Origin: an uncultured Planctomycetaceae bacterium | GTDB taxonomy: Bacteria > Planctomycetota > Planctomycetia > Planctomycetales > Planctomycetaceae | Assembly: GCA_963815195.1 (NCBI GenBank) | Contig: CAWFGE010000012.1 | Location: forward strand, 224,001 to 288,000 | DNA length: 64,000 nucleotides | Direction: 5' to 3' | Shown: piece after piece, positions 38,720 through 62,082 of the stretch | How positions within the stretch are numbered: the first letter of the stretch is position 1 | How the letters are laid out: every line of letters starts with the position of its first letter | Made by a program: the position numbers and the translations under genes | The notes under the pieces: model-generated | What the model saw: only the letters and a program-made list of their open reading frames with translations | Database searches by the model: none | What the model was told of the DNA's origin: nothing

Positions 38720-39067
38720 TCAGCAGCACGGATCGCAATTGCCATTAACTGATTTCTTAGTCGTTGATCCGCGTACCACATAAAAGAATTGAGCTTCGAT
38801 TGTGTAGGGATCTCCGCAATTTAGCAGTTCGTTGATCTCGTATGTTTCCGTGATAGTCCCAGCAGTGTTTTGTGCGTTGATCAAGTTCGCCCCTACTTCG
38901 CCGCCATTCACCCACACTTTCAGGCCTTCGCCACACGTCCCTCCATCGTATTCTTCAGCTTCAGTATGGACGACCTGAATTTCCGCACTTAGATTCCCCA
39001 TATTGTCGCAGGAATGGCTGACGATTGTCACGGTGGCGGGGCTATAAATTTTTTGTTCGTTGCTCAT
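38720..39067 (-). CDS. Small acidic Cys-rich hypothetical protein
   Basis: 115 aa, 6 Cys, ends NCDPCC; ATGA overlap with the kinase stop; AT-rich codons. Confidence 0.65.
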   Translation of the reverse strand: MSNEQKIYSPATVTIVSHSCDNMGNLSAEIQVVHTEAEEYDGGTCGEGLKVWVNGGEVGANLINAQNTAGTITETYEINELLNCGDPYTIEAQFFYVVRGSTTKKSVNGNCDPCC

Positions 39068-40956: not shown

Positions 40957-41165
40957 CAGTACGCCTCGATCAATATCATATCTCGTTCTCGCTATACTTA
41001 TACATTGTTGTTCACGTGGGACCAAGCAAAAAAACGAGCATTTTTCCGAAATTTTCGCGGCGATGGATCCCGGTTAATAGCGGGTCGTCCGCCCACCAAC
41101 GAAACTGGGACGAGCTTTCGATTGGGTGCGTGATGCCCGACCGACGCGACCGGCGAGCCGCGGCG

Positions 41166-43124
41166 TTACATAAAGGAAGCGATTTCCATTGCGGAGAGGC
41201 TTGCCCGCTGCAGGGCGGACTCGGCGAGGTATTGGTCGAGCAGCAGTTCGGTGTCCTGGCGGCCTAAGACGCCGCAGCGGATCAGCGTTTGAGCCAACGA
41301 TTTCGGATCTTCATTTTGCCAGGCGAGGAGTTGCGCGAGCTGGCTTTCGGTCAACAGTCCCAGGCGGACCGCGGCTTCGCCGAAGCGTTCGTCCGTGGCC
41401 AGCTGCTCGTCGAGAATCCGCTGGACCGCCGCGGAGTCGAGGCACCCGTGCTGGCAGCCCAATTCGCCGACGGGCACCGGCTCGGTCCGGGAGTTCAAAA
41501 GCACGCGGGAGGCGGTCGGGATGTCCAGGATCTGGCGATTGACGAGCCAGCGCGAAAACCGCCGCTGCACGATTGACTGGACAAGCCGCCGCTCATCCTC
41601 TTGCATCAGGCAGCGGATCGTCACGCGATTGCGGCCGGCGCGTTTTGATTCGTACATGGCTTCGTCGGCCTCGGCCAACAGCCGCTCGGCCACGTCCTCG
41701 CTGTTGCGGCGGGGAATGATGAGCGCCGCTCCCACGCTGACCGTGATCGGCACGCGGTCGTCGCCGAAGCAAATCCCGTGGTTTTCGACGCGAAAGCGGA
41801 TCCGCTCGGTGACTTTCTCCAGGCCTTTTTCCGTGGGCTGGACGGCGAGGATCACGAACTCTTCCCCGCCGTATCGGGCCAGGACGTCGGCGTTTCGCAT
41901 TTCGTCCTGAAACACCTGCGCCATTTCCTCCAGCACAAAGTCGCCGAACGGATGGCCGTAGTTGTCGTTGATGCGTTTGAAATGATCGACGTCGCAGAAG
42001 ATCACGGCGATGGGGTCGGCCGATCGCCGGCACACGTGGACTTCCCGCGCCAGGGCCTCTTCAAAAAAGTTGCGGTTATAGAGTTTGGTCAAGGGGTCGT
42101 GGAGGACCTGCTTGTGGAGTTGCTTGTTTTCCTCGAGGAGGATCCGGTTTTGCTCCTCGGCGAGCGTTTGCTGATGCCTGGCGACCCGGCCGGCGACGTG
42201 CTCGCGGACGGCCAATTGCGAGAGATGCTCGTTGGCGAGGGCCATCAGCTCCACGGGATCTCCCAAGTCCTCGGCATTGACGGAGAACGCGCCCGCCGCC
42301 TCTTCCATGCGGGATTTCACGTAGTTCAAAAACTGTTCGAGCCGCGCTTCATCCATATCGAACCAGGTCGAAGTCAACAGCCGCATCCGCTCGAGCGCGG
42401 GTCCCTTGTTCGACGCGCAGAAATAATCGCTCACGGCCGAGGCCACGGCGACGACTTTGATCAACTCTTTGCATCCCGTTTCCGTTTGCTTTTGAAGCTC
42501 GTCCAAATTTTGCTCGCGGGCGGCGGCGGCTTGGATCAGCGGCGCCGGGAGCTTCCAGCGCTCCATGAGTTTCGTGCCGATTTCAATCGAATCGAACCCC
42601 AGCCGCTCGCGTTCGACTTCCCACAGGTTCCGCTGGTTGTCTTCGGCTTCGTCCAGAACGGGGGCGTACTCCCGGCCGACGGTTTTCAGCATCGCCAGCC
42701 GGCCCAAGTCGGCAAGCAGCCCCGCCAGAAAGAACTGGTCTTTGACCTGCGTTTGCTCTCCCAACATTTCGCCGGCGACCGCTTGCAGGACGGACTTCAT
42801 CCAGTAGCGTTTGTAATGTTCGGCGAGCGGTCCCGAGGTCATCGCGGCTTCCACGAGGGAAAAGCTCAAGGCGAGCGACGTCACCATCGTCGCCCCCAAC
42901 AAAGGCACCGCGCGGTCGATCGACGTCACCTCGTTCCGAAACGCAAAGTAGGACGAGTTGGTGGATTTCAAAATCTTCGCGCTGATGGCCGGATCGGTCT
43001 TGATCACCTGCGTGATTTTGTGGATCTCCGGGTGCGGCTCCTCAGAGAGTTCCAGCAACTGCACGGCCACGGCGGGAAGCGTCGGCAAATGCGACGAAGA
43101 CCAAATCGTTTTCGGATTGACCAT
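41166..43124 (-). CDS. HDOD-GGDEF diguanylate cyclase with C-terminal MshEN-like repeats
   Basis: HDOD: LPTLPAVA, DPAISAKILK, GLLADLGRL. GGDEF: DPLTKLYNR, DVDHFKRINDNYGH, RNAD...RYGGEEF. Confidence 0.92.
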   Translation of the reverse strand: MVNPKTIWSSSHLPTLPAVAVQLLELSEEPHPEIHKITQVIKTDPAISAKILKSTNSSYFAFRNEVTSIDRAVPLLGATMVTSLALSFSLVEAAMTSGPLAEHYKRYWMKSVLQAVAGEMLGEQTQVKDQFFLAGLLADLGRLAMLKTVGREYAPVLDEAEDNQRNLWEVERERLGFDSIEIGTKLMERWKLPAPLIQAAAAREQNLDELQKQTETGCKELIKVVAVASAVSDYFCASNKGPALERMRLLTSTWFDMDEARLEQFLNYVKSRMEEAAGAFSVNAEDLGDPVELMALANEHLSQLAVREHVAGRVARHQQTLAEEQNRILLEENKQLHKQVLHDPLTKLYNRNFFEEALAREVHVCRRSADPIAVIFCDVDHFKRINDNYGHPFGDFVLEEMAQVFQDEMRNADVLARYGGEEFVILAVQPTEKGLEKVTERIRFRVENHGICFGDDRVPITVSVGAALIIPRRNSEDVAERLLAEADEAMYESKRAGRNRVTIRCLMQEDERRLVQSIVQRRFSRWLVNRQILDIPTASRVLLNSRTEPVPVGELGCQHGCLDSAAVQRILDEQLATDERFGEAAVRLGLLTESQLAQLLAWQNEDPKSLAQTLIRCGVLGRQDTELLLDQYLAESALQRASLSAMEIASFM

Positions 43125-43371
43125 TAGGGGAACTTTCAGAGAGGGAGAGGCCGCGTACAGGATTCCCGAGGCGAGCGCGATCGCTGGAGGAATGTCGCCT
43201 GTGACAATATAGACCACGTTAAAGCCGGTCCGCGTGCGGATTTCCCGCGAGACGCGGCCCCATTCCGCCGTCAAGAAAACCGCGTGCGCTTTGGAAGGAA
43301 TCTGCGGGTTCTCCCGCTCCGGCGGCGCAATGCCGGCGGCGAATGAATCGCGGGTGGTGGGATCGGAGCGA

Positions 43372-44052
43372 CTAATCCGGCTCGGCGATTTGCCGCAAAT
43401 AGACGGCGAGCTGCATCTCAAGGTGCATCAACCGCTGCCAGGCGTCCCAGGACAACCGCGTGGGCATTTTTTCCGTGGGGCCGGTGGGGTAGTCTTGATC
43501 CTCGCAGGATTCCTGAATGACCTTGCGGATCTGCTCGTGCATAAAGGCCAGCACTTCGGAAACCTGAGCCTTTTGAACCGTCGGCAAATGCACGGGCAAG
43601 CTGGGCGGACCGTCGGGAAACAGATCGTCTTGGAGATCGGCGTGGGAATCGATGTCCGATTCCACGTAGCCCGACTTGCCGATGGTCTGGTCCTTGGCGT
43701 GCGTGGAGGACAACGTATTGCCCGTGCGGTGGTGCTGCCTGTAGGCGTCGGCGATTTGCTCCTGGCTGCCATAAATCAAAAGGCAGCGGCCGATGGTGAG
43801 CTGGTCGCCGTATTGCAGCACGCGCATCTGCACGGGGTGCCCGTTGACCCGCGTGCCGTTGGTGCTGTCCAGGTCGGTGAGGATGACGTGCCCGCCGTCG
43901 GCTTGGATTTTCGCGTGAAACCGGCTGACCCGCTCATCGTTCAGCCGTACGGAATTGTCGTCTTCCCGCCCGATGCTCACCGGCGTGGGCAGATTCTCGT
44001 AGACCTGGCCCCGCTCAAGTCCCTCGATGAGTTGAATGGTGACAGTGGTCAT
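43372..44052 (-). CDS. FHA domain protein
   Basis: SIGREDDN, VSRFHA, DLDSTNGTRVNG. Confidence 0.92.
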   Translation of the reverse strand: MTTVTIQLIEGLERGQVYENLPTPVSIGREDDNSVRLNDERVSRFHAKIQADGGHVILTDLDSTNGTRVNGHPVQMRVLQYGDQLTIGRCLLIYGSQEQIADAYRQHHRTGNTLSSTHAKDQTIGKSGYVESDIDSHADLQDDLFPDGPPSLPVHLPTVQKAQVSEVLAFMHEQIRKVIQESCEDQDYPTGPTEKMPTRLSWDAWQRLMHLEMQLAVYLRQIAEPD

Positions 44053-48391: not shown

Positions 48392-48501
48392 GTTCGGCTC
48401 CTCAGCGGTTTGAGAGTTCATGGGGACACAACAGCCCGTATCCTATCCCGACAAGACGCAAGAGTTCAATAAAGGCGCATTGCACAAACGCAGGTGGGAC
48501 T

Positions 48502-48540
48502 TGGGTGGCACGCCCTTCGTTCCTCAGGGCGTGCCACCCA
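48502..48540. repeat. Hairpin, possible terminator or REP, downstream of the REC-GDH gene
   Basis: tgggtggcacgccct-tcgttcctc-agggcgtgccaccca. A degenerate relative begins near 58881. Confidence 0.65.
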
Positions 48541-48616
48541 AGTCCGTACCGACTTCTGTGAAACACACACTCGTTGAGTTTGTGACCGACGTCCGCTGAC
48601 TTCGTGCGCGCGGCTC

Positions 48617-50272
48617 TCACGGGAACAGGCCGCGGGCGAGTTTGGCGGCGGCGACGCGTTCGATGCCTTCGATCATCGCGGCCGTGCGCATGTCGATCTT
48701 TTCCTCCTGGGCGCGGTTGAACGTGCGGTTGAACCCATCGGTAAGAATGTGCCGCAGCCGTTCGTTGACTTCGCTCAAGGTCCACATGTAGTTCTGGATG
48801 TCCTGGACCCATTCGAAATACGACACCGTCACCCCGCCCGCGTTGGCGAGGATGTCCGGCAGGATGAACACGCCTTTGCGGTTGAGCACTTCGTCGGCTT
48901 CCAGAGTCGTCGGGCCGTTGGCGCCTTCGGCGAGGATCTTGCAGTCGATGCGGTCCACGTTCTCCGCGGTGATCTGGCTTTGCAGGGCCGCGGGCACGAG
49001 CACATCGCAGGAGAGTTCCAGAAGCTCCGCGTTGGTGATCGCTTCGCCGTGGGGGCAGCCTTCGAGGAAGCGGTGCTCGCGGACATACTCCCGAAGCAGC
49101 GACACCGAAAGGCCCTTGGGGTTAAAGAGCCCGGTGGTCGCATCGCTGACGCCGATGATCCGCACGCCGTTTTCTTCAAGGAACTGGGCCACGTGGCTGC
49201 CGACGTTCCCGAAGCCTTGAATGACGGCCGTCGATTGGTTGAGGTTGATTTTCTCATGGCGGGCGGCTTCTTCGATGAGATACACCACGCCGCGCCCGGT
49301 GGCGGCTTCGCGGCCTTGGGCGCCGCCGAGGACCAAGGGTTTGCCCGTGACGACCGCCGGGACCGCGTAGCCGACCTGCTCGCTGTAGGTGTCCATGATC
49401 CAGGCCATCACGCGTTCGTTGGTGCCCATGTCCGGGGCGGGGATGTCTTTGTCCGGGCCGATCATCGTGCCGATCTCGGAAGCGAACCGGCGGGTGAGCC
49501 GCTGGAGTTCGTGGCTGGTGAGTCCGGTGGGATCGATCCGCACGCCGCCCTTCGCTCCGCCGAACGGGAGGTGCATCAGGGCGCACTTCCAGGTCATCCA
49601 CATGGCGAGCGCGGAGACTTCGCCCAGGCTCACGTCCTGGTGATAGCGGATCCCGCCTTTGGTCGGCCCCATCGTGAGCAGGTGCTGCACGCGGTAGCCG
49701 AAGACGGTCTCGACTTCCATGTATTTGTCCCGCCGGAAGGGAAACGCGGTGACCAGGGTCCGCTGCGGAAACAACAGCCGCTGGCGGATGTTGTCATCGA
49801 GTCCCATGAGCTGGGCCGCCTTGAGGAACTGCCGCTGCGCGAGGCGGAACATCGGCGAGTCCCACTCGGCGTCGCGGACGCGGGTGCGTTCCAAGGCGTA
49901 GCGGAGCGAACGGGCGAGCACCGAGGCGTTGAGCTGCGTCTTGACGAGGTAATCCTGGGCACCGGCTTCCACCGCCCGCGCGGCGAGCTTGATGTCATCG
50001 ACGCCGGTGACGATCACCACCGGCAAATGCGGCATATGGGCGCGGACGCGGATAAACGTTTCCAGGTCCTGGCTGTCGGGCAGCGTGAGATCCAAGAGCA
50101 CCAGCTCAATATCCCCCCGGTCCAGTCGCGAGAGGCCTTCGGACAACTGCCCGGCGGTTTGCAAATCAAACGCGGGCGCCCGCGAGCTGGCGAGCAGGTT
50201 GTCGATCAGCTTGACGTGGATGGGATTGTCTTCGATCAATAGCACGCGGATGTGCGTTGAGGCATCGTTCAT
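48617..50272 (-). CDS. Receiver (REC) domain - glutamate dehydrogenase fusion
   Basis: Start MNDASTHIRVLLIEDN. REC: LLDLTLPD, IVTG, AQDYLVK. GDH: TKGGIRY, MTWK, GGAKGG, PAPD, QGFGNVG, EGANGP, NAGGVTVSYFEW. Confidence 0.93.
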   Translation of the reverse strand: MNDASTHIRVLLIEDNPIHVKLIDNLLASSRAPAFDLQTAGQLSEGLSRLDRGDIELVLLDLTLPDSQDLETFIRVRAHMPHLPVVIVTGVDDIKLAARAVEAGAQDYLVKTQLNASVLARSLRYALERTRVRDAEWDSPMFRLAQRQFLKAAQLMGLDDNIRQRLLFPQRTLVTAFPFRRDKYMEVETVFGYRVQHLLTMGPTKGGIRYHQDVSLGEVSALAMWMTWKCALMHLPFGGAKGGVRIDPTGLTSHELQRLTRRFASEIGTMIGPDKDIPAPDMGTNERVMAWIMDTYSEQVGYAVPAVVTGKPLVLGGAQGREAATGRGVVYLIEEAARHEKINLNQSTAVIQGFGNVGSHVAQFLEENGVRIIGVSDATTGLFNPKGLSVSLLREYVREHRFLEGCPHGEAITNAELLELSCDVLVPAALQSQITAENVDRIDCKILAEGANGPTTLEADEVLNRKGVFILPDILANAGGVTVSYFEWVQDIQNYMWTLSEVNERLRHILTDGFNRTFNRAQEEKIDMRTAAMIEGIERVAAAKLARGLFP

Positions 50273-53200
50273 GAGGTTTCCTCCTGGAGGGCGTCGCTCT
50301 CGATCCGGCGGGTCAAAAGCGGGGTCAATCGGTCGAGTTCGGTTTCCAACTCTGTGCAGGCGGCCGGGGCCTCTTCGAGCCGGCCTTCCTTGGCGAGCGT
50401 CTCCAGATGGAGCGCCGCCGCGGTCGCTTTTTCGGCGGCGAAGATGGCGGCGGAGCCTTTGATGGTGTGGGCCGCCCGCCGCAAGGACTTTGCGTCCCCG
50501 GACGCGAGCGCGTCCTGGCATTCCTTGAGGAGCTTCGGCGTTTCCTCCAGGAACATCGCCGCCATGTCGCGAAGCGCATCGGAGGCGATCTCCGCTTGCC
50601 GAACGGCCTTGTCCCAATCCAAAACCTCGCGCGATTCCGCGGGCGGTTGCGGGGACGGCTTTTCGGCGTCTTGGGGTTTCTGTTTCGGTTCCATGGCGGG
50701 CAATTCCTCGAAAGGCGGGGCGGCGGGATGGGACAGGATTTCTTCGATGGAGGCGAACAACTCGCCGGCGCGGACGGGCTTGGAGACATAGCCGTCCATC
50801 CCGGCGTCGAGGCATTGCTCGCGGTCGCCTTTCATCGCGTGCGCGGTCATGGCGATGATGGGAATGTGATGCCCGCCGTCGTGCTCGTGCTCCCGGTGCC
50901 GGATGGTCTTGGTCGCCGAGAGCCCGTCCATTTCCGGCATTTGCACATCCATCAGAATCAAGTCGAAGGGATGCGATTCCCAAAGCCAAACGGCCTCCCG
51001 GCCGTTGTTCGCCACGGTGACGTGATGTCCGTGCGGCTCGAGCTGCGCGAGCGCGAGCTTTTGATTGACCAGGCTGTCCTCGGCGAGCAGGATTCTTAAA
51101 CGAGGCAGCCGGGCGGCGATTTCGTGGGCGGGGACATCGGACGCGGTCTCGCCCGTCGCGTCGGCCACGCCCAACGTCCTCGCGATGACGTTGAACAACT
51201 CCGATTGCTTGACTGGTTTCGTGAGATACGCCGCGATCCCCAAATCCTGGCAGCGGGAGAGTTCTTCCCGGCGGTCGTTGGAGGTGAGCATCATCGTGAT
51301 CGCGCTCCCTAATCCGGGATCGTGCTGGATGGCCTCGGCGACGCTGAAACCGTCAAGCCCCGGCATGTTCGCGTCGATCAGGATCAGATCGAACGCGTGG
51401 CCTTCATCCAGATGCTTGCGCATTTCGGGCAGGGCCTCTTCGCTGTGGGTAATTGCGACGGGACACATCCGCCAGTTGCGGAGCGTCTCTTCCAGGATGT
51501 CGCAGTTGGTGCGGTTGTCGTCGACGATCAGCACGCGCAAGCCTTCGAGCCGGCCGTCGGGACGGGGGCGTTTCTTCGGGAGTTGATCCGGAGCCGGGAC
51601 GCCGAACCGGACGGTGAAGTGGAACGTGCTGCCTTCGCCGACCTGGCTTTCGAGCCAGATGCGTCCGCCCATGAGTTCCACGAGGCGGGAGCAGATGGCG
51701 AGTCCCAGCCCCGTGCCGCCGTAGCGTCGGCTGATGGATTCGTCGGCCTGCTCGAAGGCTTGGAAGATTTGCTCTTGCTTGTTCTGAGGGATGCCGCAGC
51801 CGGTGTCGCGGACGGAAAAATGCAGCGTGATGTCTTTTTTCGAGCGGGCGTCCTGGACGGCTTCCAGCACGATCTCGCCGGTGTCGGTGAATTTGATCGC
51901 GTTGCCCACGAGGTTGACGAGAATCTGCCTTAAGCGAAAGCGGTCGCCGCCGACGAAATCGGGGACGTCCGATTCGACTTGCCAGGCGAGTTCGACACCT
52001 TTGCGGTGCGCCCGAAGCGCGAGGGACTTCATCGTGTCGCCGATGTTCTCCCGCAAATCGAAGGGGGCGTATTCCAGGTCGAACCGCCCCGCCTCGATTT
52101 TGGAGAAGTCGAGAATGTCGTTGATCACGTTGAGCAGCGAGTCGGCGGACTCCTGAACCATCGTCAGATGCTCGCGTTGGGTCGGGGTCAAATCGGTGTC
52201 CAAAACGAGTTCGGTCATGCCGATGACGGCGTTCATCGGCGTGCGGATTTCGTGGCTCATGTTGGCGAGGAAGCTGCTTTTCGCGCGGTTGGCGGCCTCG
52301 GCGGCTTCTTTGGCGGTTTCGAGTTCCTCTTTCGCGTGTTTTTCCTCGGTGATGTCATGCAGGAACGCGGCGAACAAAAATCCCGAAGCCTGCCGCACCG
52401 GCGAGATGGTGATTTCGATGGGAAACTCGCGCCCGTCGCGGTGCAGCGCGTTGAGTTCGAGCCGGCGGCTGAGCAGCGGCGCCTCGCCGCTCTCCAAAAA
52501 CCGCTCGATGCCGTGGCGGTGCGCATCGCGAAGCGCATGCGGAATGATCAATTCGGGCATGTCCCGCCCCACCGCTTCCGCCGCCGTCCAGCCGAACGTC
52601 GCCTCGGCCTGCCCGTTCCATTCCTGGATCGTGCTGGCTTCGTCGATGGCAATGAACGCCTCGTGCGCTGTCGCGAGGATCTCGCGGTTCTTTTCGTCGC
52701 GGGCCTTGATTTCCTCCTCGATCTTTTTGGCGGCCGTCACGTTCCGCAGCACGATCACGCCGCCGCGCAAATCGCCCCGGTCGTTTTTGAGCGGCGCTCC
52801 GGTAATGCTGATCCAAACATCGTCCGGCAGATTGGGATTGCGGAGGATGAGTTCCTGCCCGTAAATCGACTCGCCCCGCATGGCGCGGGCCAAAGGCAGA
52901 TTCTCCGGCGGATAAAGCGTCCCGCCGTCGGGCTCGTAGCAACCGTAAAACTGGGGCCAATCTTCGGGAGGCACATCCTCGGGCCCGATGCCCACGATCC
53001 CGCGGGCCGCGGGATTCCAGAGCAGAAACTTTCCGAATTGGTCCGCGACGATCACGCCGTCGTTCATGCTGTCCATGATGGATTGCAGAATGCGCGTCTG
53101 CCGACGGAGTTCTTTTTGGGCTTCGGTGAGTTGGGTGGTTCGCTGTTTGACGCGGTCCTCCAAGCGGTCGCGGGCCTCGGCGAGCTGCTCGGCCATGCGG

Positions 53201-54345
53201 TTGAACGCCGTCCCCAACAGGCCGATTTCATCCCGCGAGGTCACCGGCACGCGGGCATCCAGATCGCCTTGGGCAATGGTGGCGGCGGCTTCGGTCAGGC
53301 GGAAGATCGGCCGCGTCAACCGCCGGGCCAACACAAACGAAGCGATCGCCCCCAAAAGGACGAGGAGGCATTGCAGCCCGATCAGCGTGTTGCGGAGCCG
53401 GGTGACCGGGGCATAGGCTTCGTCCAAATCCATCTTGGCGACCAGGCCCCAGGGGGGATTCTTGTCCGGCTGATAGGAGACCGGCTGGTACGCGGCCAAC
53501 ACGTCGGTTCCATGATAATGCGTGACCTCGGCCCCTTGCTCGCCGTTCAAAGCCCGCGCCATTGGCGGAACATTCCACAGGGGCTCGCTCGAGCCCTTTT
53601 CCCCCGCGGACGAGAACAAAAAGTGGACCGCGTCGCCGCTCCGCCGGCCCACGCGGATCTCGCCGGTCTTCTCCAACCCCGTGCGGTCCTCGACTAAGCT
53701 CCAAAGCCGGGTCGCGTTGTGCTGGACCATCACCACGCCGAGCAAATGATTTTGCTCGCTGCGGATCGGCACCGCGGCATAGGCCAGCCAATTTCCGTCG
53801 ACTTTCTGCGGCACCCCGAGGTGCGGCCGGGTTCGTCCCGCGAGAAAATCCGGATCGTCGGCAAACGACCAGTCCAGATGCGCCGGCTCGGAGGCGGCGA
53901 TCACGTTGCCTTGCGGATTGGTCACCCAGATTTCGTGAATGTTGAGCGTGTTTTCTTGCGCATCCCGCAGAATCTGATCCGCGTTCTTGCGAAACTCCGT
54001 CGGCGTGCTCTTGCCGGTCGCATAATCCTGCAGGAGTTCCACCAGCCGGGTCCGCCCCGCGACCAAGGCCGCCCGTTCGAGTTGCTGATGGGCGTAGGAT
54101 TCCAATCGGGCCGAGCGTTCCGAAGCAATCAACTTCAGCCGATTGTGGATGTTGTCGTGGAGGATGTTTCGCGCGGTGACATACGCCAGGTGCCCCAGGA
54201 GGCCGGCCGTCAGAATCACCACCGTCGCCACGAACAACGTATTTCGCACCAACAGGGAGTGCGGCAGGCGAATGCGGTGTTGGGGCGCCGGGAATTCCGC
54301 GGAATTTGTCTCTGGTTCGTCTCGATCATGCGAGCTCGTCTGCAT
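50269..54345 (-). CDS. Hybrid sensor histidine kinase (TM-Cache-like-TM-HAMP-PAS-PAS-HisKA-HATPase-REC-REC-Hpt)
   Basis: ANMSHEIRTPMN, NLVGNAIKFT, DTGCGI, GGTGLGL, LIDANMP, LMDVQMP, AAHTIKGSA. Confidence 0.95.
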   Translation of the reverse strand: MQTSSHDRDEPETNSAEFPAPQHRIRLPHSLLVRNTLFVATVVILTAGLLGHLAYVTARNILHDNIHNRLKLIASERSARLESYAHQQLERAALVAGRTRLVELLQDYATGKSTPTEFRKNADQILRDAQENTLNIHEIWVTNPQGNVIAASEPAHLDWSFADDPDFLAGRTRPHLGVPQKVDGNWLAYAAVPIRSEQNHLLGVVMVQHNATRLWSLVEDRTGLEKTGEIRVGRRSGDAVHFLFSSAGEKGSSEPLWNVPPMARALNGEQGAEVTHYHGTDVLAAYQPVSYQPDKNPPWGLVAKMDLDEAYAPVTRLRNTLIGLQCLLVLLGAIASFVLARRLTRPIFRLTEAAATIAQGDLDARVPVTSRDEIGLLGTAFNRMAEQLAEARDRLEDRVKQRTTQLTEAQKELRRQTRILQSIMDSMNDGVIVADQFGKFLLWNPAARGIVGIGPEDVPPEDWPQFYGCYEPDGGTLYPPENLPLARAMRGESIYGQELILRNPNLPDDVWISITGAPLKNDRGDLRGGVIVLRNVTAAKKIEEEIKARDEKNREILATAHEAFIAIDEASTIQEWNGQAEATFGWTAAEAVGRDMPELIIPHALRDAHRHGIERFLESGEAPLLSRRLELNALHRDGREFPIEITISPVRQASGFLFAAFLHDITEEKHAKEELETAKEAAEAANRAKSSFLANMSHEIRTPMNAVIGMTELVLDTDLTPTQREHLTMVQESADSLLNVINDILDFSKIEAGRFDLEYAPFDLRENIGDTMKSLALRAHRKGVELAWQVESDVPDFVGGDRFRLRQILVNLVGNAIKFTDTGEIVLEAVQDARSKKDITLHFSVRDTGCGIPQNKQEQIFQAFEQADESISRRYGGTGLGLAICSRLVELMGGRIWLESQVGEGSTFHFTVRFGVPAPDQLPKKRPRPDGRLEGLRVLIVDDNRTNCDILEETLRNWRMCPVAITHSEEALPEMRKHLDEGHAFDLILIDANMPGLDGFSVAEAIQHDPGLGSAITMMLTSNDRREELSRCQDLGIAAYLTKPVKQSELFNVIARTLGVADATGETASDVPAHEIAARLPRLRILLAEDSLVNQKLALAQLEPHGHHVTVANNGREAVWLWESHPFDLILMDVQMPEMDGLSATKTIRHREHEHDGGHHIPIIAMTAHAMKGDREQCLDAGMDGYVSKPVRAGELFASIEEILSHPAAPPFEELPAMEPKQKPQDAEKPSPQPPAESREVLDWDKAVRQAEIASDALRDMAAMFLEETPKLLKECQDALASGDAKSLRRAAHTIKGSAAIFAAEKATAAALHLETLAKEGRLEEAPAACTELETELDRLTPLLTRRIESDALQEETS

Positions 54346-56296: not shown

Positions 56297-56690
56297 AAGG
56301 TTCGGCTATTAACCTGGGGAACGATGGGTTTCGGGCGCCTAAGTCTTGGTGAAACCAAACCGCCGCTCCGATGACAAAACATGATTTTGTGCCCCATGAT
56401 TCTGTGATCTTAACATCGTGTGCTCGGCGGTGCCAAGAACTGGCTGCGGCCGGCTTTCGGCGACACCGCCCGTGCCGCGAGGCATTCTGCATTTGCAGCA
56501 TACCCGGAACGGAAAGGCGGGCGTAGGGGAGGTTTCCCGTGCGGTTTGCCGAGACGTTCCCGACTCTTTCCTGGGAGTTCCTTCCAGGCGTGATCGCCTT
56601 CCCCGCCCGATAGCCCGCCGCCAGCCGCGCGGGACAATACATCTATCCCGATTTGCCCATTGGCTGACACAGCGCGAAAAGGAACCCTCA

Positions 56691-57068
56691 ATGACGCCCA
56701 TCGGACATAAACGCTGGACCATCGCGGAGGGCTACATCCCGGGCTGGAGCCACGGCCCGGAACCGCAAATGACCAGCCACGAAACGGCGTGCATCTTGAA
56801 TGCGGGCGATGAAGACGCCGAGGTGCGAATGTTCGTGTTCTTCAGCGACCGCGATCCCGCCGGGCCGTACAAGTTCACGGTGCCGGCTCAGCGGACGAAG
56901 CACGTTCGGTTCAACGAACTCAAGGACCCCGAACCGATCCCCAAGGACACCGACTACGCGAGCGTGATCGAGTCGAACGTGCCGATCGTGGTGCAGCATT
57001 CGCGGCTCGATTCGCGCCAGGCGGAGAACGCCCTCGTCAGCACGATCGCCTTCGCCGAGCGGGATTGA
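56691..57068 (+). CDS. Sensory rhodopsin transducer (ASRT/DUF1362) family protein
   Basis: IGHKRWTIAEGYIP, SHETACILN, RTKHVRFN, VVQHSRLDSRQAENAL. Confidence 0.9.
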   Translation: MTPIGHKRWTIAEGYIPGWSHGPEPQMTSHETACILNAGDEDAEVRMFVFFSDRDPAGPYKFTVPAQRTKHVRFNELKDPEPIPKDTDYASVIESNVPIVVQHSRLDSRQAENALVSTIAFAERD

Positions 57069-57114
57069 AGCCCCATTCACACACAAACCTGAAAACGAAC
57101 GGAGTGAAACTCTC

Positions 57115-57574
57115 ATGGAAACCACCTACCAAATGCCCCCCACCACAAGGCGGGTTGAAGAACATACCTCGGACGAAATCAACGAGCGGATTCGGCGGGA
57201 CACCGATGAACGGATTGCGGTGTACTTCGCGGCGGGCCGCGCGGCGATCGAACGCGCGGCTCGAGCAGCTCGACCACGAATGGGACATCGAGCGGGTCTT
57301 GGAAGCGAACGCCGCGTCGGTCTCGCTGGCGGGGTTCGTCTTGGGAGCGACGTTGAGCCGCAAATTTCTCGCGCTGCCTGCCGTGGTGTCGGGTTTTCTC
57401 TTGCAGCATGCGATCCAAGGCTGGTGCCCGCCGGTGCCGTTCTTCCGCCGCCGGGGCTTTCGCACCGCGCGGGAAATCGAGGAAGAACGCATCGCGCTCA
57501 AGGCGTTGCGCGAGGACTTCGACGGCATTTCCCAAAAAAGCGTGCCGGAGATTATGGAGGCGGTCCGCCGGTAA
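57115..57574 (+). CDS. DUF2892/YgaP-like membrane protein (frameshift near 57255)
   Basis: TTRRVEEHTSDEINERI (frame of 57115) joins EWDIERVLEANA...LLQHAIQGWCPP...GFRTAREIEEER (frame of 57065). Confidence 0.82.
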
Positions 57575-57747
57575 GAGCCCGCGGGAATGAATTTCGGCGA
57601 ACAACTCGGTCCTGGAAAAACCGGGAGTGCGACGCCCTCAGTCACACTCAGGCTCGTGCCATCCATGACGAGACGGGCGGGATCTGTTTGCGAACGCCGG
57701 CAGTTCACCGGGGGGGACCGTTGAGGCCGGACCAGAGAGCAAGCCCC

Positions 57748-58857
57748 ATGTTGCACACAAACATCGACAAACTCGAAGTCACCGCCTACCAGGTGCCCAC
57801 CGATCAACCGGAATCGGATGGAACCTTGAAGTGGGATTCCACGACGATGGTCCTGGTGACGGTGTCCGCGGGCGGCGAGCGCGGGTTGGGTTATACCTAC
57901 TCGCAGACCGCGGCCGCCCGGCTGATCGCCGACAAGTTCCGCGATCAAATCGTCGGCGAGGACCCGCTGGAAGTCACACGGCTTAGCGAAAACTGTTATC
58001 GGACAGCCCGCAACCTGGGCCGGCCGGGGATCGTGGCCAGCGCCATCTCGGCGGTCGATGCGGCTTTGTGGGACCTCAAAGCCCGGCTGCTGGACTTGCC
58101 CTTGGTCCGCCTGCTCGGCCAGGTGCGGGATGAAATCGACATCTACGGCAGCGGCGGCTTTACGTCGTACTCCATCGAGCAGTTCCGGGAGCAATTGGGC
58201 GGCTGGGTGGAACAGGGAATCCCCCGCGTCAAAATGAAGATCGGCCGCGATCCCCAACACGACGTGCACCGCGTCTCCGAAGCCCGCAAAGCAATCGGCG
58301 CGAAGGCCGAACTCTTTGTGGATGCCAATGGAGCCTACGATCGCAAGCAGGCTTTGGCCAAGGCGGAAGACTTTGCGGGATTTGGGGTCAGTTGGTTCGA
58401 GGAGCCGGTGAGTTCGGACGACCTCGCGGGGCTGCGCTTGCTGCGGGACCGCGCACCGGCGGGCATGGACATCACGTCGGGCGAGTACGGCGACGACCGG
58501 TTTTATTTCAAACGGATGCTGGACGCCGGAGCCGTCGATGTGCTCCAGCCGGACGCCACGCGGTGCGGCGGCGTGACGGGGTTCCTCGCCGCGGCGGAAT
58601 TGTGCCGAGCCCAGCCGCTGCCGCTCTCGGCCCACACCGCGCCGTCGCTGCATCGGCATCTGTGCTGCGCGGCGATGCCCGCCCGGCATATCGAGTATTT
58701 CCACGATCACGTCCGCATCGAGCAGATGTTCTTCGACGGAGCAGCCAAGCAAGTCGGCGGCAAGCTGGGTCCCGATCCGTCAAGACCGGGTTGGGGACTG
58801 GAACTCAAACAACCCGACGCGGACAAGTACGCCGTCTGGCGAAACACCGGAGAATGA
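57748..58857 (+). CDS. Mandelate racemase/muconate lactonizing enzyme (enolase superfamily) protein
   Basis: ALWDLKAR, KMK, VDANG, FEEP, GEY, QPD, SAH. Confidence 0.92.
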   Translation: MLHTNIDKLEVTAYQVPTDQPESDGTLKWDSTTMVLVTVSAGGERGLGYTYSQTAAARLIADKFRDQIVGEDPLEVTRLSENCYRTARNLGRPGIVASAISAVDAALWDLKARLLDLPLVRLLGQVRDEIDIYGSGGFTSYSIEQFREQLGGWVEQGIPRVKMKIGRDPQHDVHRVSEARKAIGAKAELFVDANGAYDRKQALAKAEDFAGFGVSWFEEPVSSDDLAGLRLLRDRAPAGMDITSGEYGDDRFYFKRMLDAGAVDVLQPDATRCGGVTGFLAAAELCRAQPLPLSAHTAPSLHRHLCCAAMPARHIEYFHDHVRIEQMFFDGAAKQVGGKLGPDPSRPGWGLELKQPDADKYAVWRNTGE

Positions 58858-58992
58858 TGAAGCGAAGGAAAACCGGAGTTTGGGTGGCCCGTCCCTGAGC
58901 GTAGCGATCGCAGAGACCACACCCACCAGAAAATAAAACGCCGGGCGAGTTGAATCGCCTGGCGCGAATGTCAGCACAACCAAGGAGAACCC

Positions 58993-61900
58993 ATGCCAAT
59001 CAGCGAAGCGCCCGCTCGACAAATCCGCGAAGCTCAGAAGGGCCGTTCCATCCGCCAGGTCGGGTTTCCGCACCGGGAAGCCCGCGGGTTGGCGGAGCGG
59101 CTCGAAAGAGCCGTCGACGGCGAAGTCCGCTTCGACGCCGGCAGCCGGGCCCTGTATTCCCGCGACGGCTCCAACTACCGCCAGATCCCGATCGGCGTGG
59201 TCGTGCCCCGGAATGCGGACGATGTGCTCGCGACCGTCGCGCTCTGCCGGGAGTTTGGCGCTCCGATCCTCGCCCGGGGCGGCGGCACGAGTCTGGCGGG
59301 GCAATGCTGCAACGTCGCGGTCGTGCTCGATTTCTCGAAATACATGAACCGCATCCTCGAAATCAACGCGGAAGAAAAATGGGCGCGGGTCGAGCCGGGA
59401 TTGATCCTCGATCATCTCAACGAGCGGACCGTGCCCTTGAACCTGGCCTGGGGGCCGGACCCTTCCACGCACAACCACTGCACCTTCGGCGGGATGCTGG
59501 GGAACAACTCCTGCGGCGTGCATTCCGTGATGGCCGGCCGCAGCGTCGATAACCTCCACGAAATGGACATCGTGACCTATGAAGGCCGGCGGATGCACCT
59601 CGCCCAGACCTCCGATGAAGATTACGAACGCATCGTCAAGGCGGGCGGGCCGGAGGCGGAGATCTATCAAAGGCTCCGCCGACTCCGGGACCGATATGCC
59701 GACGTGATCCGCGAGCGGTTTCCCGACATTCCCCGCCGGGTCTCCGGTTATTGTCTCGACGAGTTGCTTCCCGAAAACGGCTTTCACGTCGCCCGCTCGC
59801 TGGTCGGAACCGAATGCACCTGCGCCCTCCTGCTCGAAGCCAAGGTGCGGCTCATTCATCATCCGCCCAAGCGGTCGCTGCTGGTCCTTTGTTATTCCGA
59901 CGTTTACAAAGCCGGCGACGCCATCCCCGAGGTCATGGCCCAAAACCCGATCGGCCTGGAAGGCATCGACGATCGGCTGATCGGCTACATGCATAAAAAA
60001 GGCATGCACCCGGACGATCTGGCTCTCTTTCCCCAAGGCTGGGGCGGCTGGCTGCTTGTCGAGTTCGGGGCCGACACCCAGGAAGAGGCCAACCACCTCG
60101 CCGAGAACGCGGCGTCGGCTCTCAAGAAGTACTGCGAGGATTACGAGATTTACGAAGACCCGGCCAAGCAGGAAAAAATCTGGGAGATTCGCGAATCGGG
60201 ACTGGGGGCGACGGCCTTCGTGCCGGGACATCACGACACCTGGCCCGGTTGGGAAGACTCCGCCGTGCCGCCCGAGCGGTTGGGCGAATATCTCCGCGAC
60301 ATCCGCCAACTGATGGAAGACCACGGCTACGATTGCTCCTACTACGGCCACTTCGGCCAAGGGCTTCTGCATACGCGGATCGACTTCGATCTCAAAACGC
60401 AGAAGGGTCTCGCGACCTATCGATCCTTCATCGAACAGGCCGCGGACTTGTGCCACGCCTACGGCGGCTCGTTCTCCGGCGAGCACGGCGACGGCCAAGC
60501 CCGCGGCGAACTCTTGGGAAAAATGTACGGCGAGGAACTGCTCCAGGCGTTCCGCGAGTTCAAATCCATCTGGGACCCGCAGTGGAAAATGAACCCCGGC
60601 AAGGTCGTCGACGCCGACCCGCTGGACACCAACCTCGTCTTCGGCACCGACTACAGTCCGCCCACCGTCAAGACGCATTTCCATTATCCCGAAGACGGCG
60701 GGGACTTCGCGCACGCGGCCAACCGCTGCGTCGGCGTCGGAAAGTGCCGGCGCTGGGACGGCGGCACGATGTGCCCCAGCTATATGGTCACCCACGAAGA
60801 AAAACACACCACCCGCGGCCGGGCGCGGATGCTCTATGAAATGATGCAAGGCGACGTCGTCACCGACGGCTGGCAAAGCGAGGAAGTCAAAGAGGCCTTG
60901 GACCTCTGCCTCGCCTGCAAAGGCTGCAAAGGCGACTGCCCCGTCGATGTGGACATGGCGACTTACAAGGCCGAGTTTCTTTCGCATTACTATGAGGGAC
61001 ATTTTCGTCCGCGCTCCGCCTGGGCGATGGGCTTGATCGATGTTTGGGCGAGGCTCGCCTCCAAGATGCCCCGCGTGGTCAACTACTTCGCGTCGGCTCC
61101 GGGCTTCAGTCCGATCGTCAAATGGATGGGCGGCGTCGCCCAGGAACGCAAAATGCCCGCCTTCGCCGCCGAGCCCTTCACGCGCTGGTTCCGTCATCGG
61201 CAAGATCGCAGAACTTCCGGCCCGCCCGTGCTCTTGTGGCCGGATACCTTCAACAATTTCCTGCATCCGGAAACCGCTCGCTCCGCAACCCGCGTCCTGG
61301 AACGGGCCGGCTTTCAAGTCGCGATTCCCGAAACCCATCTGTGCTGCGGCCGGCCGCTTTATGACTACGGCCTGCTCGACCGGGCCAAGATGTATCTGCG
61401 GCGAATCCTCGATCAACTCCGCCCGCAAATCCAAGCGGGCGTGCCGATCGTCGTCTTGGAGCCGAGCTGCCTCGCCGTCTTTCAGGATGAATTGTTGAAC
61501 CTGTTCCCCAATGATATGGATGCCAAACGGCTCAAGCAGCAGTCGTTCACGTTGGCGCAGTTTCTGGAGAAGTACGCCGAAGACAGCAAACTCCCCAAGC
61601 TCGACCGCAAAGCATTGCTCCACGGCCATTGCCATCATAAGTCGATCATGGGGATGAACAGCGAACAGAAACTGCTCGAAAAGCTCGGCGTCGACTTCGA
61701 GGCTCCTGAAACAGGCTGCTGCGGGATGGCCGGTTCGTTCGGCTTCGAGTCCGATCATTATGACATTTCCATGGCCTGCGGCGAACGGGTGCTCTTGCCC
61801 GCCGTGCGTAAAGCCGCGGTCGACGAGCTGGTCATCGCCGACGGCTTCAGTTGCCAGGAGCAAATCGAGCAGCAGTCCGGCCGCCGGGCGATGCATATCG

Positions 61901-62082
61901 CCCAAGTCCTCGACATGGCCTACGAGGAAGGGGCCCGCGGCCGAATCACAACGAGCTACCCCGAACGCTGCTTCCGCGAGGATCACTCCAAGGAACGCAT
62001 CAGCGGCAAGAAACTTTTGGCGGGCACCGCGGGCGTGCTCGCGGGAATTGTTCTGGCGAAAGTTTTATTGAATCGGCGGTAG
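58993..62082 (+). CDS. FAD-binding and (Fe-S)-binding oxidoreductase (YdiJ / GlcD-GlcF fusion type)
   Basis: RGGGTSLAGQ, SGEHGDG, CVGVGKC, CLACKGCKGDCP, CCGR and CCGMAG. Confidence 0.93.
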   Translation: MPISEAPARQIREAQKGRSIRQVGFPHREARGLAERLERAVDGEVRFDAGSRALYSRDGSNYRQIPIGVVVPRNADDVLATVALCREFGAPILARGGGTSLAGQCCNVAVVLDFSKYMNRILEINAEEKWARVEPGLILDHLNERTVPLNLAWGPDPSTHNHCTFGGMLGNNSCGVHSVMAGRSVDNLHEMDIVTYEGRRMHLAQTSDEDYERIVKAGGPEAEIYQRLRRLRDRYADVIRERFPDIPRRVSGYCLDELLPENGFHVARSLVGTECTCALLLEAKVRLIHHPPKRSLLVLCYSDVYKAGDAIPEVMAQNPIGLEGIDDRLIGYMHKKGMHPDDLALFPQGWGGWLLVEFGADTQEEANHLAENAASALKKYCEDYEIYEDPAKQEKIWEIRESGLGATAFVPGHHDTWPGWEDSAVPPERLGEYLRDIRQLMEDHGYDCSYYGHFGQGLLHTRIDFDLKTQKGLATYRSFIEQAADLCHAYGGSFSGEHGDGQARGELLGKMYGEELLQAFREFKSIWDPQWKMNPGKVVDADPLDTNLVFGTDYSPPTVKTHFHYPEDGGDFAHAANRCVGVGKCRRWDGGTMCPSYMVTHEEKHTTRGRARMLYEMMQGDVVTDGWQSEEVKEALDLCLACKGCKGDCPVDVDMATYKAEFLSHYYEGHFRPRSAWAMGLIDVWARLASKMPRVVNYFASAPGFSPIVKWMGGVAQERKMPAFAAEPFTRWFRHRQDRRTSGPPVLLWPDTFNNFLHPETARSATRVLERAGFQVAIPETHLCCGRPLYDYGLLDRAKMYLRRILDQLRPQIQAGVPIVVLEPSCLAVFQDELLNLFPNDMDAKRLKQQSFTLAQFLEKYAEDSKLPKLDRKALLHGHCHHKSIMGMNSEQKLLEKLGVDFEAPETGCCGMAGSFGFESDHYDISMACGERVLLPAVRKAAVDELVIADGFSCQEQIEQQSGRRAMHIAQVLDMAYEEGARGRITTSYPERCFREDHSKERISGKKLLAGTAGVLAGIVLAKVLLNRR

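Follow-up and report, generated by a model that had tools for sequence, protein, structure and literature searches.

Glutamate dehydrogenase (GDH) stands at the meeting point of carbon and nitrogen metabolism. A catabolic GDH must be shut off fast, or else freshly made glutamate is burnt, and the known fast controls employ separate inhibitors, regulatory subunits or complexes with a counter-enzyme. Response regulators can also have enzymatic outputs, as CheB and PleD do. Receiver (REC) domains fused to metabolic enzymes, namely thioredoxin reductase, PPDK and a glycosyltransferase, have been described (Galperin et al. 2018, PMC5847659, section vii), and in Table 1 of P2CS (2009) the GDH EC 1.4.1.3 appears among TCS enzymes, marked 'probable' (PMC2716373). 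In actinobacteria, the GlnH-GlnX-PknG-OdhI/GarA system conveys an outside signal to the 2-oxoglutarate/glutamate node by phosphorylation and without transcription (PMC9769921). Thermus thermophilus GdhA is an inactive regulatory GDH subunit (PMC9570180). The initial annotation of the locus presented here knew of no characterised example of a REC-GDH fusion. This stands insofar as no experimental study was found in the literature, but the class of fusion is known and GDH appears in the P2CS list.

The window, a stretch of 64,000 nucleotides from an uncultured Planctomycetaceae bacterium, carries such a fusion next to a hybrid histidine kinase. The features of the locus are as follows.

48497..48545, no strand: perfect 20-bp inverted repeat, REP-like, 72 nt beyond the fusion stop
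48617..50272, minus: REC-glutamate dehydrogenase fusion gene, P0001, 551 aa (Pfam and relatives)
48620..49855, minus: small GDH of group II type, complete (residues 140-551), carrying K205, K229, K241, D281, R321, S484 and a GxGxxG/SDAT cofactor loop
49856..49876, minus: linker DAEWDSP of fixed length, between helix 5 of REC and the first helix of GDH (alignment, model)
49877..50251, minus: receiver domain of P0001, residues 8-132 (E14, D15, D61, T89, Y108, K111), with a predicted long helix 116-135
50269..50286, minus: ATGA stop/start overlap and AGGAGG ribosome-binding site, spanned by a public contig with no differences
50269..54345, minus: unorthodox hybrid histidine kinase, P0002, 1358 aa, TM-dCache-TM-HAMP-PAS-PAS-HisKA-HATPase-REC-REC-Hpt
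50311..50616, minus: C-terminal Hpt domain with H1293 in AAHTIKG, the presumed phosphodonor (Pfam, residues)
50746..51537, minus: two internal receiver domains, D991 and D1133 (Pfam, residues)
51604..52284, minus: HisKA and HATPase_c core with phospho-His H698 (Pfam, residues)
53437..54165, minus: extracytoplasmic dCache-like sensor flanked by two TM helices (Pfam below cut-off; no YxxxxRxWY motif)

The fusion frame runs from the ATG at 50272 to the stop at 48617 on the minus strand without an internal stop. In agreement with the initial annotation, it joins an intact receiver to a full GDH, and all Pfam domains of the product score above cut-off (Response_reg 10-113, ELFV_dehydrog_N 169-297, ELFV_dehydrog 316-548). 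The receiver has the acidic pair E14/D15, the phospho-acceptor D61, T89 and K111, the set that characterises a response-regulator receiver. The Lys of KGGIRY and the Ser of GGVTVS, earlier read as glutamate-specificity positions that set GDHs apart from Leu/Phe dehydrogenases, are K205 and S484; together with K229, K241 and D281 they match T. maritima GDH in the alignment. The ORF coordinates also confirm that the stop of the kinase (TGA) and the start of the fusion (ATG) overlap as ATGA at 50269-50272. The AGGAGG lies 7 nt 5' of this ATG, within the final kinase codons, and from the sequence we infer that the kinase and REC-GDH are translationally coupled. A public DNA-run contig, which is possibly the window's own source, covers the kinase-REC junction (49947-50406) with zero differences; the REC-GDH linker is spanned by none of the public DNA pieces listed. 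An assembly artefact as the origin of the fusion is nevertheless rejected, because 120/120 matches listed share the fusion and 116 aligned fusions are conserved. The 14-bp core of the downstream inverted repeat has 57 exact copies in the genome, and the repeat is a possible transcript end. Promoter and terminator scans gave 1 and 6 sites versus 0.9 and 6.9 expected by chance, and there is no RNA dataset among the listed holders of the sequence.

The architecture search that had been proposed found PF00072 and PF02812 together in 120/120 matches listed (query included), cultured strains (Gimesia, Roseiconus, Halomonas, Lujinxingia) being among those named. The fusions form one GDH clade spanning several phyla in a tree where the genome's own GdhA, a very long branch, supports no conclusion. 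Uniqueness to this assembly, once named as a ground for refutation, therefore does not apply. Receiver residues E14, D15, K111 and T/S89 are present in 116/116 aligned fusions and D61 in 115/116. GDH residues K205, K229, K241, D281 and R321 occur in all 116, and the spacing from K111 to P140 is 29 aa in every one. G770 and G855 have frameshifts near receiver residue 104, each a one-base shift in a G run. These are likely assembly errors, and the two, one with a partner and the other without, were excluded from the intact/degenerate count. The receiver is of a widespread type found also on HK, GGDEF, HD and PAS proteins, which makes the conserved face on helix 4 non-specific. A search for single-chain kinase-GDH fusions among 2392 longer candidates, a weak test, gave 6 matches, none of them with HisKA or Hpt. 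A class-wide search around Halomonas recovered 1/300, the centre genome only.

With both Pfam domains above cut-off and a GDH fold, the enzyme half groups with the small hexameric GDHs of the ELFV family; its scores stay below the NCBIfam equivalog cut-offs (GdhB_Halo 470 against 620, GdhA_Arch 469 against 750). The best solved relative is T. maritima GDH, PDB entry 1b26 (E 2.5e-136 across residues 140-551), with which the model shares 52% identity at a TM of 0.92 and an rmsd of 2.5 Å. The three Lys, the Asp of APD and the Ser of GGVTVS, which we take to be the glutamate-binding and catalytic residues, are identical to those of 1b26 and are invariant or nearly so in the 116 fusions. The cofactor loop, SDAT, is closer to SDAN/SDAY/SDIT (3k92, 3k8z, 6yeh) than to the SDSR of T. 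maritima; 3k92 and 3k8z are labelled NAD-specific. The fusion GDH is likely to be NAD-linked and catabolic. The remaining GDH of the genome, an NADP GdhA, scores above the NCBIfam cut-off, a glutamate synthase domain is present, and no large NAD-GDH was found in the genome, which is 94.6% complete. At one related locus (L113) the fusion is divergent from an operon of the arginine succinyltransferase pathway, the end product of which is glutamate.

The structure model (pLDDT 90.7, pTM 0.78) supersedes an earlier one from alignment A1, in which domain I had a pLDDT below 50. It has a helix at 116-135 followed by a helix at 140-156. Fifteen of the 24 clade-specific GDH residues fall within 137-201, and these residues cluster in the N-terminal helices and hairpin. 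Their role as a receiver-docking patch is unsupported, since receiver-less members retain most of them. Among 60 listed solved relatives, none has its best stretch extending to the receiver.

In the kinase, Pfam identifies HAMP, two PAS, HisKA, HATPase_c, two REC and Hpt domains, as well as a dCache_1 match at 61-303 that is below cut-off (33.6 bits, cut-off 45). Two hydrophobic helices are present, at 36-54 and 321-339. The relay residues H698, D991/D1133 and H1293 occur in one chain, which makes P0002 an unorthodox (tripartite) hybrid kinase. The best NCBIfam match is BarA (NF008318), at 576 bits against a cut-off of 890. Given this score and a neighbour that is REC-GDH, with no DNA-binding partner, P0002 does not qualify as a BarA/GacS orthologue. 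The amino-acid-binding dCache motif (dCache_1AA), YxxxxRxWY...Y...D (PMC8915833), is absent in 9/9 aligned sensors, that of P0002 included, and an amino-acid-sensing dCache is rejected because this motif is missing. An extracellular signal, as initially suggested, fits this locus, where the dCache lies between TM helices, but not the family, in which the inputs of the partner kinases are dCache, CHASE, GAF-PAS, PAS only, V4R or REC-REC and some are cytoplasmic.

The constant partner is the Hpt, and the sensors vary. A kinase or Hpt adjoins 54 of the 61 scorable intact-receiver loci compared to none of the 6 in which the receiver is lost or degenerate, these six being few and related (three are one clade). 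The adjacent Hpt kinase is thus conserved, which had been posed as a question, and the response regulator is linked to its cognate kinase or phosphotransferase by gene context. The partner is kept when gene order changes, upstream or downstream of the fusion, when the sensor changes and when the kinase splits, leaving a stand-alone Hpt (L114), a REC-Hpt gene (L115) or an Hpt remnant (L118). At L177 the partner has apparently been replaced and adjacency kept. On a poorly resolved tree, the Hpt domains beside the fusions do not group as a single clade (10 changes). No private signature was found in them, and a dedicated Hpt clade or signature is not supported. The genome has seven further Hpt-bearing ORFs, so the adjacent Hpt need not be the exclusive donor.

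It could be argued that the fusion and its neighbourhood are inherited baggage, the receiver being served by various kinases or nearly without effect and the adjacent kinase having other targets. The spread is indeed patchy: the fusion occurs in 6/401 genomes of the phylum and in 16/201 of the family (several without a receiver). Furthermore, either half has been lost repeatedly, there is no Hpt signature, and seven intact-receiver loci are partnerless despite flanks of 1.5 kb or more on each side. However, the dN/dS of the receiver is 0.03-0.22, its phospho-site is invariant, the Hpt remains adjacent through rearrangements, and receiver decay is found only where the partner is missing. This explanation is very unlikely.

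The reading that we favour, with a probability of roughly 55%, is that phosphorylation tunes the likely NAD-linked, catabolic GDH. It starts from what was observed: the domains and residues, the coupled genes, and both conservation and co-occurrence across the family. With the adjacent kinase's Hpt as the putative phosphodonor, phosphate would pass from H698 to D1133 or D991, then to H1293 and finally to D61 of REC-GDH, where it would likely tune GDH activity with no transcription factor involved. In the model, receiver helix 5 is continuous, via a 4-residue turn, with the first GDH helix. Phosphorylation may move helix 5, and as the junction adjoins the helices and hairpin rich in clade-specific residues, oligomer state or domain closure could be affected. 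The fusion GDH would work alongside the assimilatory NADP-GdhA and glutamate synthase. Receiver-less and non-phosphorylatable members retain the full active site, which favours a default-on enzyme; the active form is probably the unphosphorylated one, by about 60:40. The main effect of the relay would be to hold back glutamate breakdown and thereby limit futile cycling.

At eight loci the receiver and partner are kept and GDH catalytic positions are altered. Several positions are changed in L226-L228, L244, L256 and L260, and D281G is the sole catalytic change in L258 and L259. The altered forms occur in three separate starred clades of the receiver tree (a quick tree), each of which has active forms too, and in the planctomycete-like P0129. 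GDH catalytic residues have thus been lost beside an intact receiver and kinase in at least three lineages, a finding that is new here. This counts against the favoured reading, as relay selection at these loci needs no catalysis. The GDH fold may be a ligand-sensing or scaffold module that sets how the receiver takes up or holds phosphate, with information reversed or two-way and catalysis dispensable; it could be a metabolite-gated sink tuning the kinase and its other targets. The altered GDH half has a dN/dS of 0.14-0.18 (three Halomonadaceae genomes, one lineage), within the 0.03-0.22 of active pairs, although folding need alone possibly accounts for such low values. L226 keeps 26/26 invariant receiver, 19/21 linker/N-helix and 34/40 NAD-domain positions, but only 52/73 of the domain I core and 13/28 C-terminal positions. 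GDH is also known as a moonlighting regulator (GltC; PMC6978683). Against this explanation, the catalytic residues are invariant in 116/116 close members and intact in 44/52 of the loci that combine an intact receiver, a partner and a complete GDH, no further response regulator is constantly nearby, and the altered forms are derived and hence no necessary guide to ancestral function. We regard it as possible but doubtful, well behind control of GDH activity by phosphorylation.

The same variants could be regulatory subunits, if phosphorylation governed the binding of GDH to a partner (an enzyme, as when GudB and glutamate synthase form their counter-enzyme complex; another GDH subunit, as for the inactive Thermus GdhA; a regulator; or a protease) and not its own catalysis. 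The linker, N-terminal helices and hairpin are what the altered forms keep best in L226 (linker/N-helix as above, helices/hairpin 14/16) and L260 (20/21 and 16/16), but much of the N-terminal helices and of the hairpin is missing from L244 and L256. Other ELFV-family genes are present in 5/5 tested genomes with altered forms, and an active fusion exists as well in G1260; in the three Halomonadaceae genomes, however, no fusion copy besides the altered one was found. Precedents are the inactive regulatory GdhA (PMC9570180) and, by its title, PDB entry 7mfm. No conserved partner gene lies nearby, and binding control of this kind is improbable.

A broader proposal, offered tentatively, would make the GDH hexamer a two-way hub, both the terminal target of the relay and a phosphate sink or scaffold, gated by glutamate/NAD(H), through which metabolic state is returned to the relay. 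The receiver-pseudoGDHs, with at least three origins beside intact kinases, would then be dedicated signalling proteins. If a His-Asp relay does end on GDH itself, it represents another solution to fast control. The receiver-less, non-phosphorylatable and catalytically altered versions provide natural controls, and the altered ones open the question of how a metabolic enzyme becomes a signalling pseudoenzyme.

Like other response regulators with enzymatic outputs, P0001 couples a complete enzyme to an N-terminal receiver whose phosphorylation site is full; unlike them, its output is a central C/N enzyme and an Hpt-type donor is conserved across phyla. The cited archaeal REC-enzyme fusions are narrowly distributed, whereas REC-GDH spans phyla and has recurrent catalytically altered variants. 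The substrate and catalytic residues are identical to those of small hexameric GDHs (1b26; RocG/GudB, 3k92 and 3k8z; T. thermophilus GdhB, 3aog), to which the fusion adds a receiver and clade-specific N-terminal helices and hairpin. P0002 shares the HisKA-HATPase-REC-Hpt relay with BarA/GacS, TorS and ArcB, but has two internal receivers and a dCache-HAMP-PAS-PAS input, and the neighbouring terminal receiver bears an enzyme instead of a DNA-binding domain. Within the GlnH-GlnX-PknG-OdhI/GarA system a Ser/Thr kinase acts on a Thr of a separate FHA inhibitor, whereas here a His-Asp relay would act on the enzyme's own domain. Thermus GdhA, a GDH fold retained for regulation and devoid of catalysis, resembles the relatives' altered fusions, which by alignment have a GDH fold without catalytic residues; the window protein does not belong to this type. 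Thermus GdhA, however, has no receiver and forms a heterohexamer with GdhB, whereas the altered fusions adjoin a kinase and not an active GDH.

The kinase gene and the gene for the receiver-glutamate dehydrogenase (REC-GDH) fusion form an overlapping pair:

54345-50269, reverse strand, kinase ORF of 1358 aa
50272-48617, reverse strand, REC-GDH ORF of 551 aa
upstream of the pair, GH15 hydrolase (Pfam)
downstream of the pair, CMD protein (Pfam)

The kinase stop and the fusion start share the sequence ATGA, and AGGAGG lies just 5' of it. The Pfam domain order of the kinase is TM-dCache-TM-HAMP-PAS-PAS-HisKA-HATPase-REC-REC-Hpt, with the dCache match scoring under the Pfam cut-off, and the phosphorelay residues H698, D991, D1133 and H1293 are all present. 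The fusion contains Response_reg and both GDH domains in a single frame (Pfam). The GDH half matches T. maritima GDH along its entire length (E 2.5e-136), and the predicted structure of the fusion (pLDDT 90.7, pTM 0.78) has a TM score of 0.92 to that enzyme. The anatomy described in the initial annotation, overlapping genes and an intact receiver with a full GDH in one frame, is borne out by the ORF and Pfam evidence. The GH15 and CMD genes do not recur beside the fusion among the annotated neighbors of its relatives. Farther out, an ASRT-family gene, a mandelate racemase-like enzyme and an FAD/4Fe-4S oxidoreductase cluster adjoin the trehalase-like GH15 gene (56418-62082; Pfam). About 5-9 kb downstream, on the fusion's strand (39064-44052), are a Ser/Thr kinase-like ORF, an HDOD-GGDEF gene and an FHA-domain gene, none of which was seen near the fusion in the annotated relatives. 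A perfect 20-bp inverted repeat 3' of the fusion gene (48497-48545) is a REP-like element; its 14-bp core has 57 exact copies in the genome and 99 with one mismatch.

The fusion is real and conserved. It is not confined to this assembly: all 120 matches listed, query included, combine a receiver with GDH, the others at 70-97% identity. The best named matches are Planctomycetaceae, and named carriers among the matches listed include Gimesia, Roseiconus, Pirellulales, Amphritea, Pontibacterium, Gemmatimonadota and Latescibacteria. When four partial sequences are left out, the receiver residues E14, D15, T/S89 and K111 and the GDH residues K205, K229, K241, D281 and R321 do not vary in the remaining 116 fusions, the spacing from K111 to P140 is always 29 residues, and D61 differs once. 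In a GDH tree of 119 rows, a single branch (SH-aLRT 99) unites the 25 fusions with one Burkholderiales gene that lacks the receiver. The distribution is patchy: 6 of 401 genomes in the window's phylum, 16 of 201 in its family (the receiver being short or missing in several), 19 of 331 in the Halomonas stenophila family and 18 of 48 in the Lujinxingia order, while in the class around Halomonas the genome on which the search was centered is the sole carrier among 300. This distribution is most simply read as one origin with later transfer and loss. Two receiver-less clade members (L185, L186) start just before the linker and have EFDDP or EWDDP there, compared to EWDSP in the fusions. Two genomes of the window's genus carry a one-base frameshift, both at the same run of G close to residue 104 of the receiver (L176:6950-6980 and L184:8430-8460); these are likely assembly errors, but slippage may also be responsible. 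A single 1028-aa protein on one contig, P0124, in which GDH is followed by partial GGDEF and HD_5 matches, may be an assembly chimera.

Partner genes were scored at 76 loci, window included and near-duplicates L120, L124, L125 and L130 left out, a partner being defined as an Hpt no more than 4.5 kb away or a kinase core no more than 3 kb away. The two frameshifted genes were kept out of the receiver classes. Of 66 loci with an intact receiver, 54 have a partner and 7 lack one, the other 5 being too short for scoring, which puts a neighboring kinase or Hpt at 54 of 61 scorable loci. In contrast, a partner is present at none of the six scorable loci whose receiver is absent or degenerate (the ED pair changed to EG or ES, the T to I); one further such locus is too short and one is truncated by a contig end. 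Since these loci are related, the association should be taken as a pattern, not as a statistical result. It indicates that the proposed wiring from kinase to REC-GDH is probably right. The kinase lies 5' of the fusion in most planctomycetes and 3' of it in Halomonadaceae, Gemmatimonadota and the Lujinxingia order.

The constant element of the partners is the Hpt. The fusion is accompanied by a stand-alone Hpt gene in L114 and at several Lujinxingia-order loci; L115 has a REC-Hpt gene instead, and L118 an Hpt remnant. The sensor inputs are dCache, CHASE, GAF-PAS, PAS only, V4R, or REC-REC beside cheA/cheB-like genes. The extracellular signal initially proposed is therefore too narrow for the family, although the window kinase itself is TM-dCache-TM; the amino-acid-binding motif defined in PMC8915833 was not found in its dCache domain. 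At L002:1573-9644 the sensor is replaced by two N-terminal receivers, and the kinase comes after genes like cheA and cheB, which ties that fusion to a chemosensory cluster. Exclusive pairing of Hpt and fusion is counted against by the 10 changes that fusion-adjacent Hpts need on a weakly supported tree, by the lack of private residues in these Hpts, and by seven Hpt ORFs in the window genome besides that of the partner kinase. In G759, whose fusion has no neighboring kinase, the Hpt of an unlinked hybrid kinase (L281, contig C2) groups with fusion-adjacent planctomycete Hpts; this kinase is possibly a displaced partner. A partnerless intact fusion (L113:10129-16613, genome G334) is divergent from an operon of M20 peptidase, aminotransferase III, astA, aldehyde dehydrogenase and astB, which encodes arginine breakdown to glutamate. 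In L006:13617-16130, GCS2-like and AstE/AspA-like genes and then SelO lie 3' of the Halomonas stenophila kinase on the same strand.

When 50%-identity representatives were searched with the receiver plus its linker, receivers of the fusion clade turned up on degenerate GDH halves:

Altered GDH residues in relatives of the fusion
L226-L228: K205L, K229Q, D281G, V481A, S484A
L260: K205L, D281G, R321F
L244, L256: more eroded GDH, residue mapping less sure
L258, L259: D281G only

All eight loci keep the receiver residues E/D/D/T/Y/K and an adjacent kinase. The internal receiver motif is found in all eight kinases and the H-box in four, the other four not matching the strict pattern used. One altered protein, P0131, is the representative of a 15-member cluster in which some records bear the name Halomonas (Bisbaumannia) pacifica, which rules out an assembly error. 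In the receiver tree the altered forms fall in three separate branches (support 95-98), each shared with active forms; protein P0129 sits among planctomycete-type rows. Decay is greatest in the glutamate-binding domain and C-terminal helices and least in the receiver. By simple Nei-Gojobori counts on high-GC, non-independent pairs, dN/dS in L226-L228 is 0.14-0.18 for the altered GDH half and 0.04-0.09 for the receiver, compared to 0.03-0.22 in active pairs. The altered form is the only fusion copy found in three Halomonadaceae genomes; G1260 has both forms. The unexpected finding is that a receiver-pseudoGDH has appeared more than once next to intact kinases, and this offers a clean experimental set-up.

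Phosphate would pass from the kinase or Hpt to the fusion receiver, a step that gene context makes highly probable. Control of catalysis by the receiver is made less certain by the altered variants, whose intact receivers and kinases would suit a GDH fold that serves as a sensor or sink. That role is an unlikely one. Phosphorylation might instead control the binding of partners by GDH, but this is more doubtful still. Control of GDH catalysis by receiver phosphorylation, and with it of the glutamate/2-oxoglutarate node as initially proposed, is preferred with a probability of about 0.55 for the whole reading. In the model, receiver helix 5 (116-135) is followed by a four-residue turn and GDH helix 140-156. 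The N-terminal region of small GDHs, here residues 137-201, builds subunit contacts, and 15 of the 24 clade-specific GDH residues lie within it. The joint, fixed in length and rigid in appearance, would suit mechanical coupling.

The window protein is taken to be active because all its catalytic residues are present. Its cofactor loop resembles those of NAD-specific entries; the genome also encodes an NADP GdhA, carries a glutamate synthase domain and yielded no large NAD-GDH. Judged from these sequences, the fusion probably serves as the catabolic GDH of the cell. The open frame that holds the central domain of glutamate synthase spans just 431 aa (C11:70660-71499 of the window's genome), short for a large subunit, and may be split or frameshifted. 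Since receiver-less and non-phosphorylatable clade members retain their active sites, there is a faint suggestion that the enzyme is active without phosphorylation, the relay mainly serving to lower its activity.

REC-GDH belongs among the response regulators with enzymatic output, a known kind. The surveys of Galperin from 2006 and 2010 reportedly list such receiver-enzyme fusions, GDH perhaps among them, and the receiver-GDH architecture may have been listed there. P2CS (PMC2716373) gives EC 1.4.1.3 as probably present in two-component proteins, naming no protein, and PMC5847659 states that receivers on standard metabolic enzymes have been seen many times in bacteria. The literature searched, mostly non-subscription papers and in part, yielded no study of a receiver-GDH protein. 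The closest analogs are PknG-OdhI/GarA (PMC9769921), GDH-GltC (PMC6978683) and the inactive Thermus GdhA (PMC9570180).
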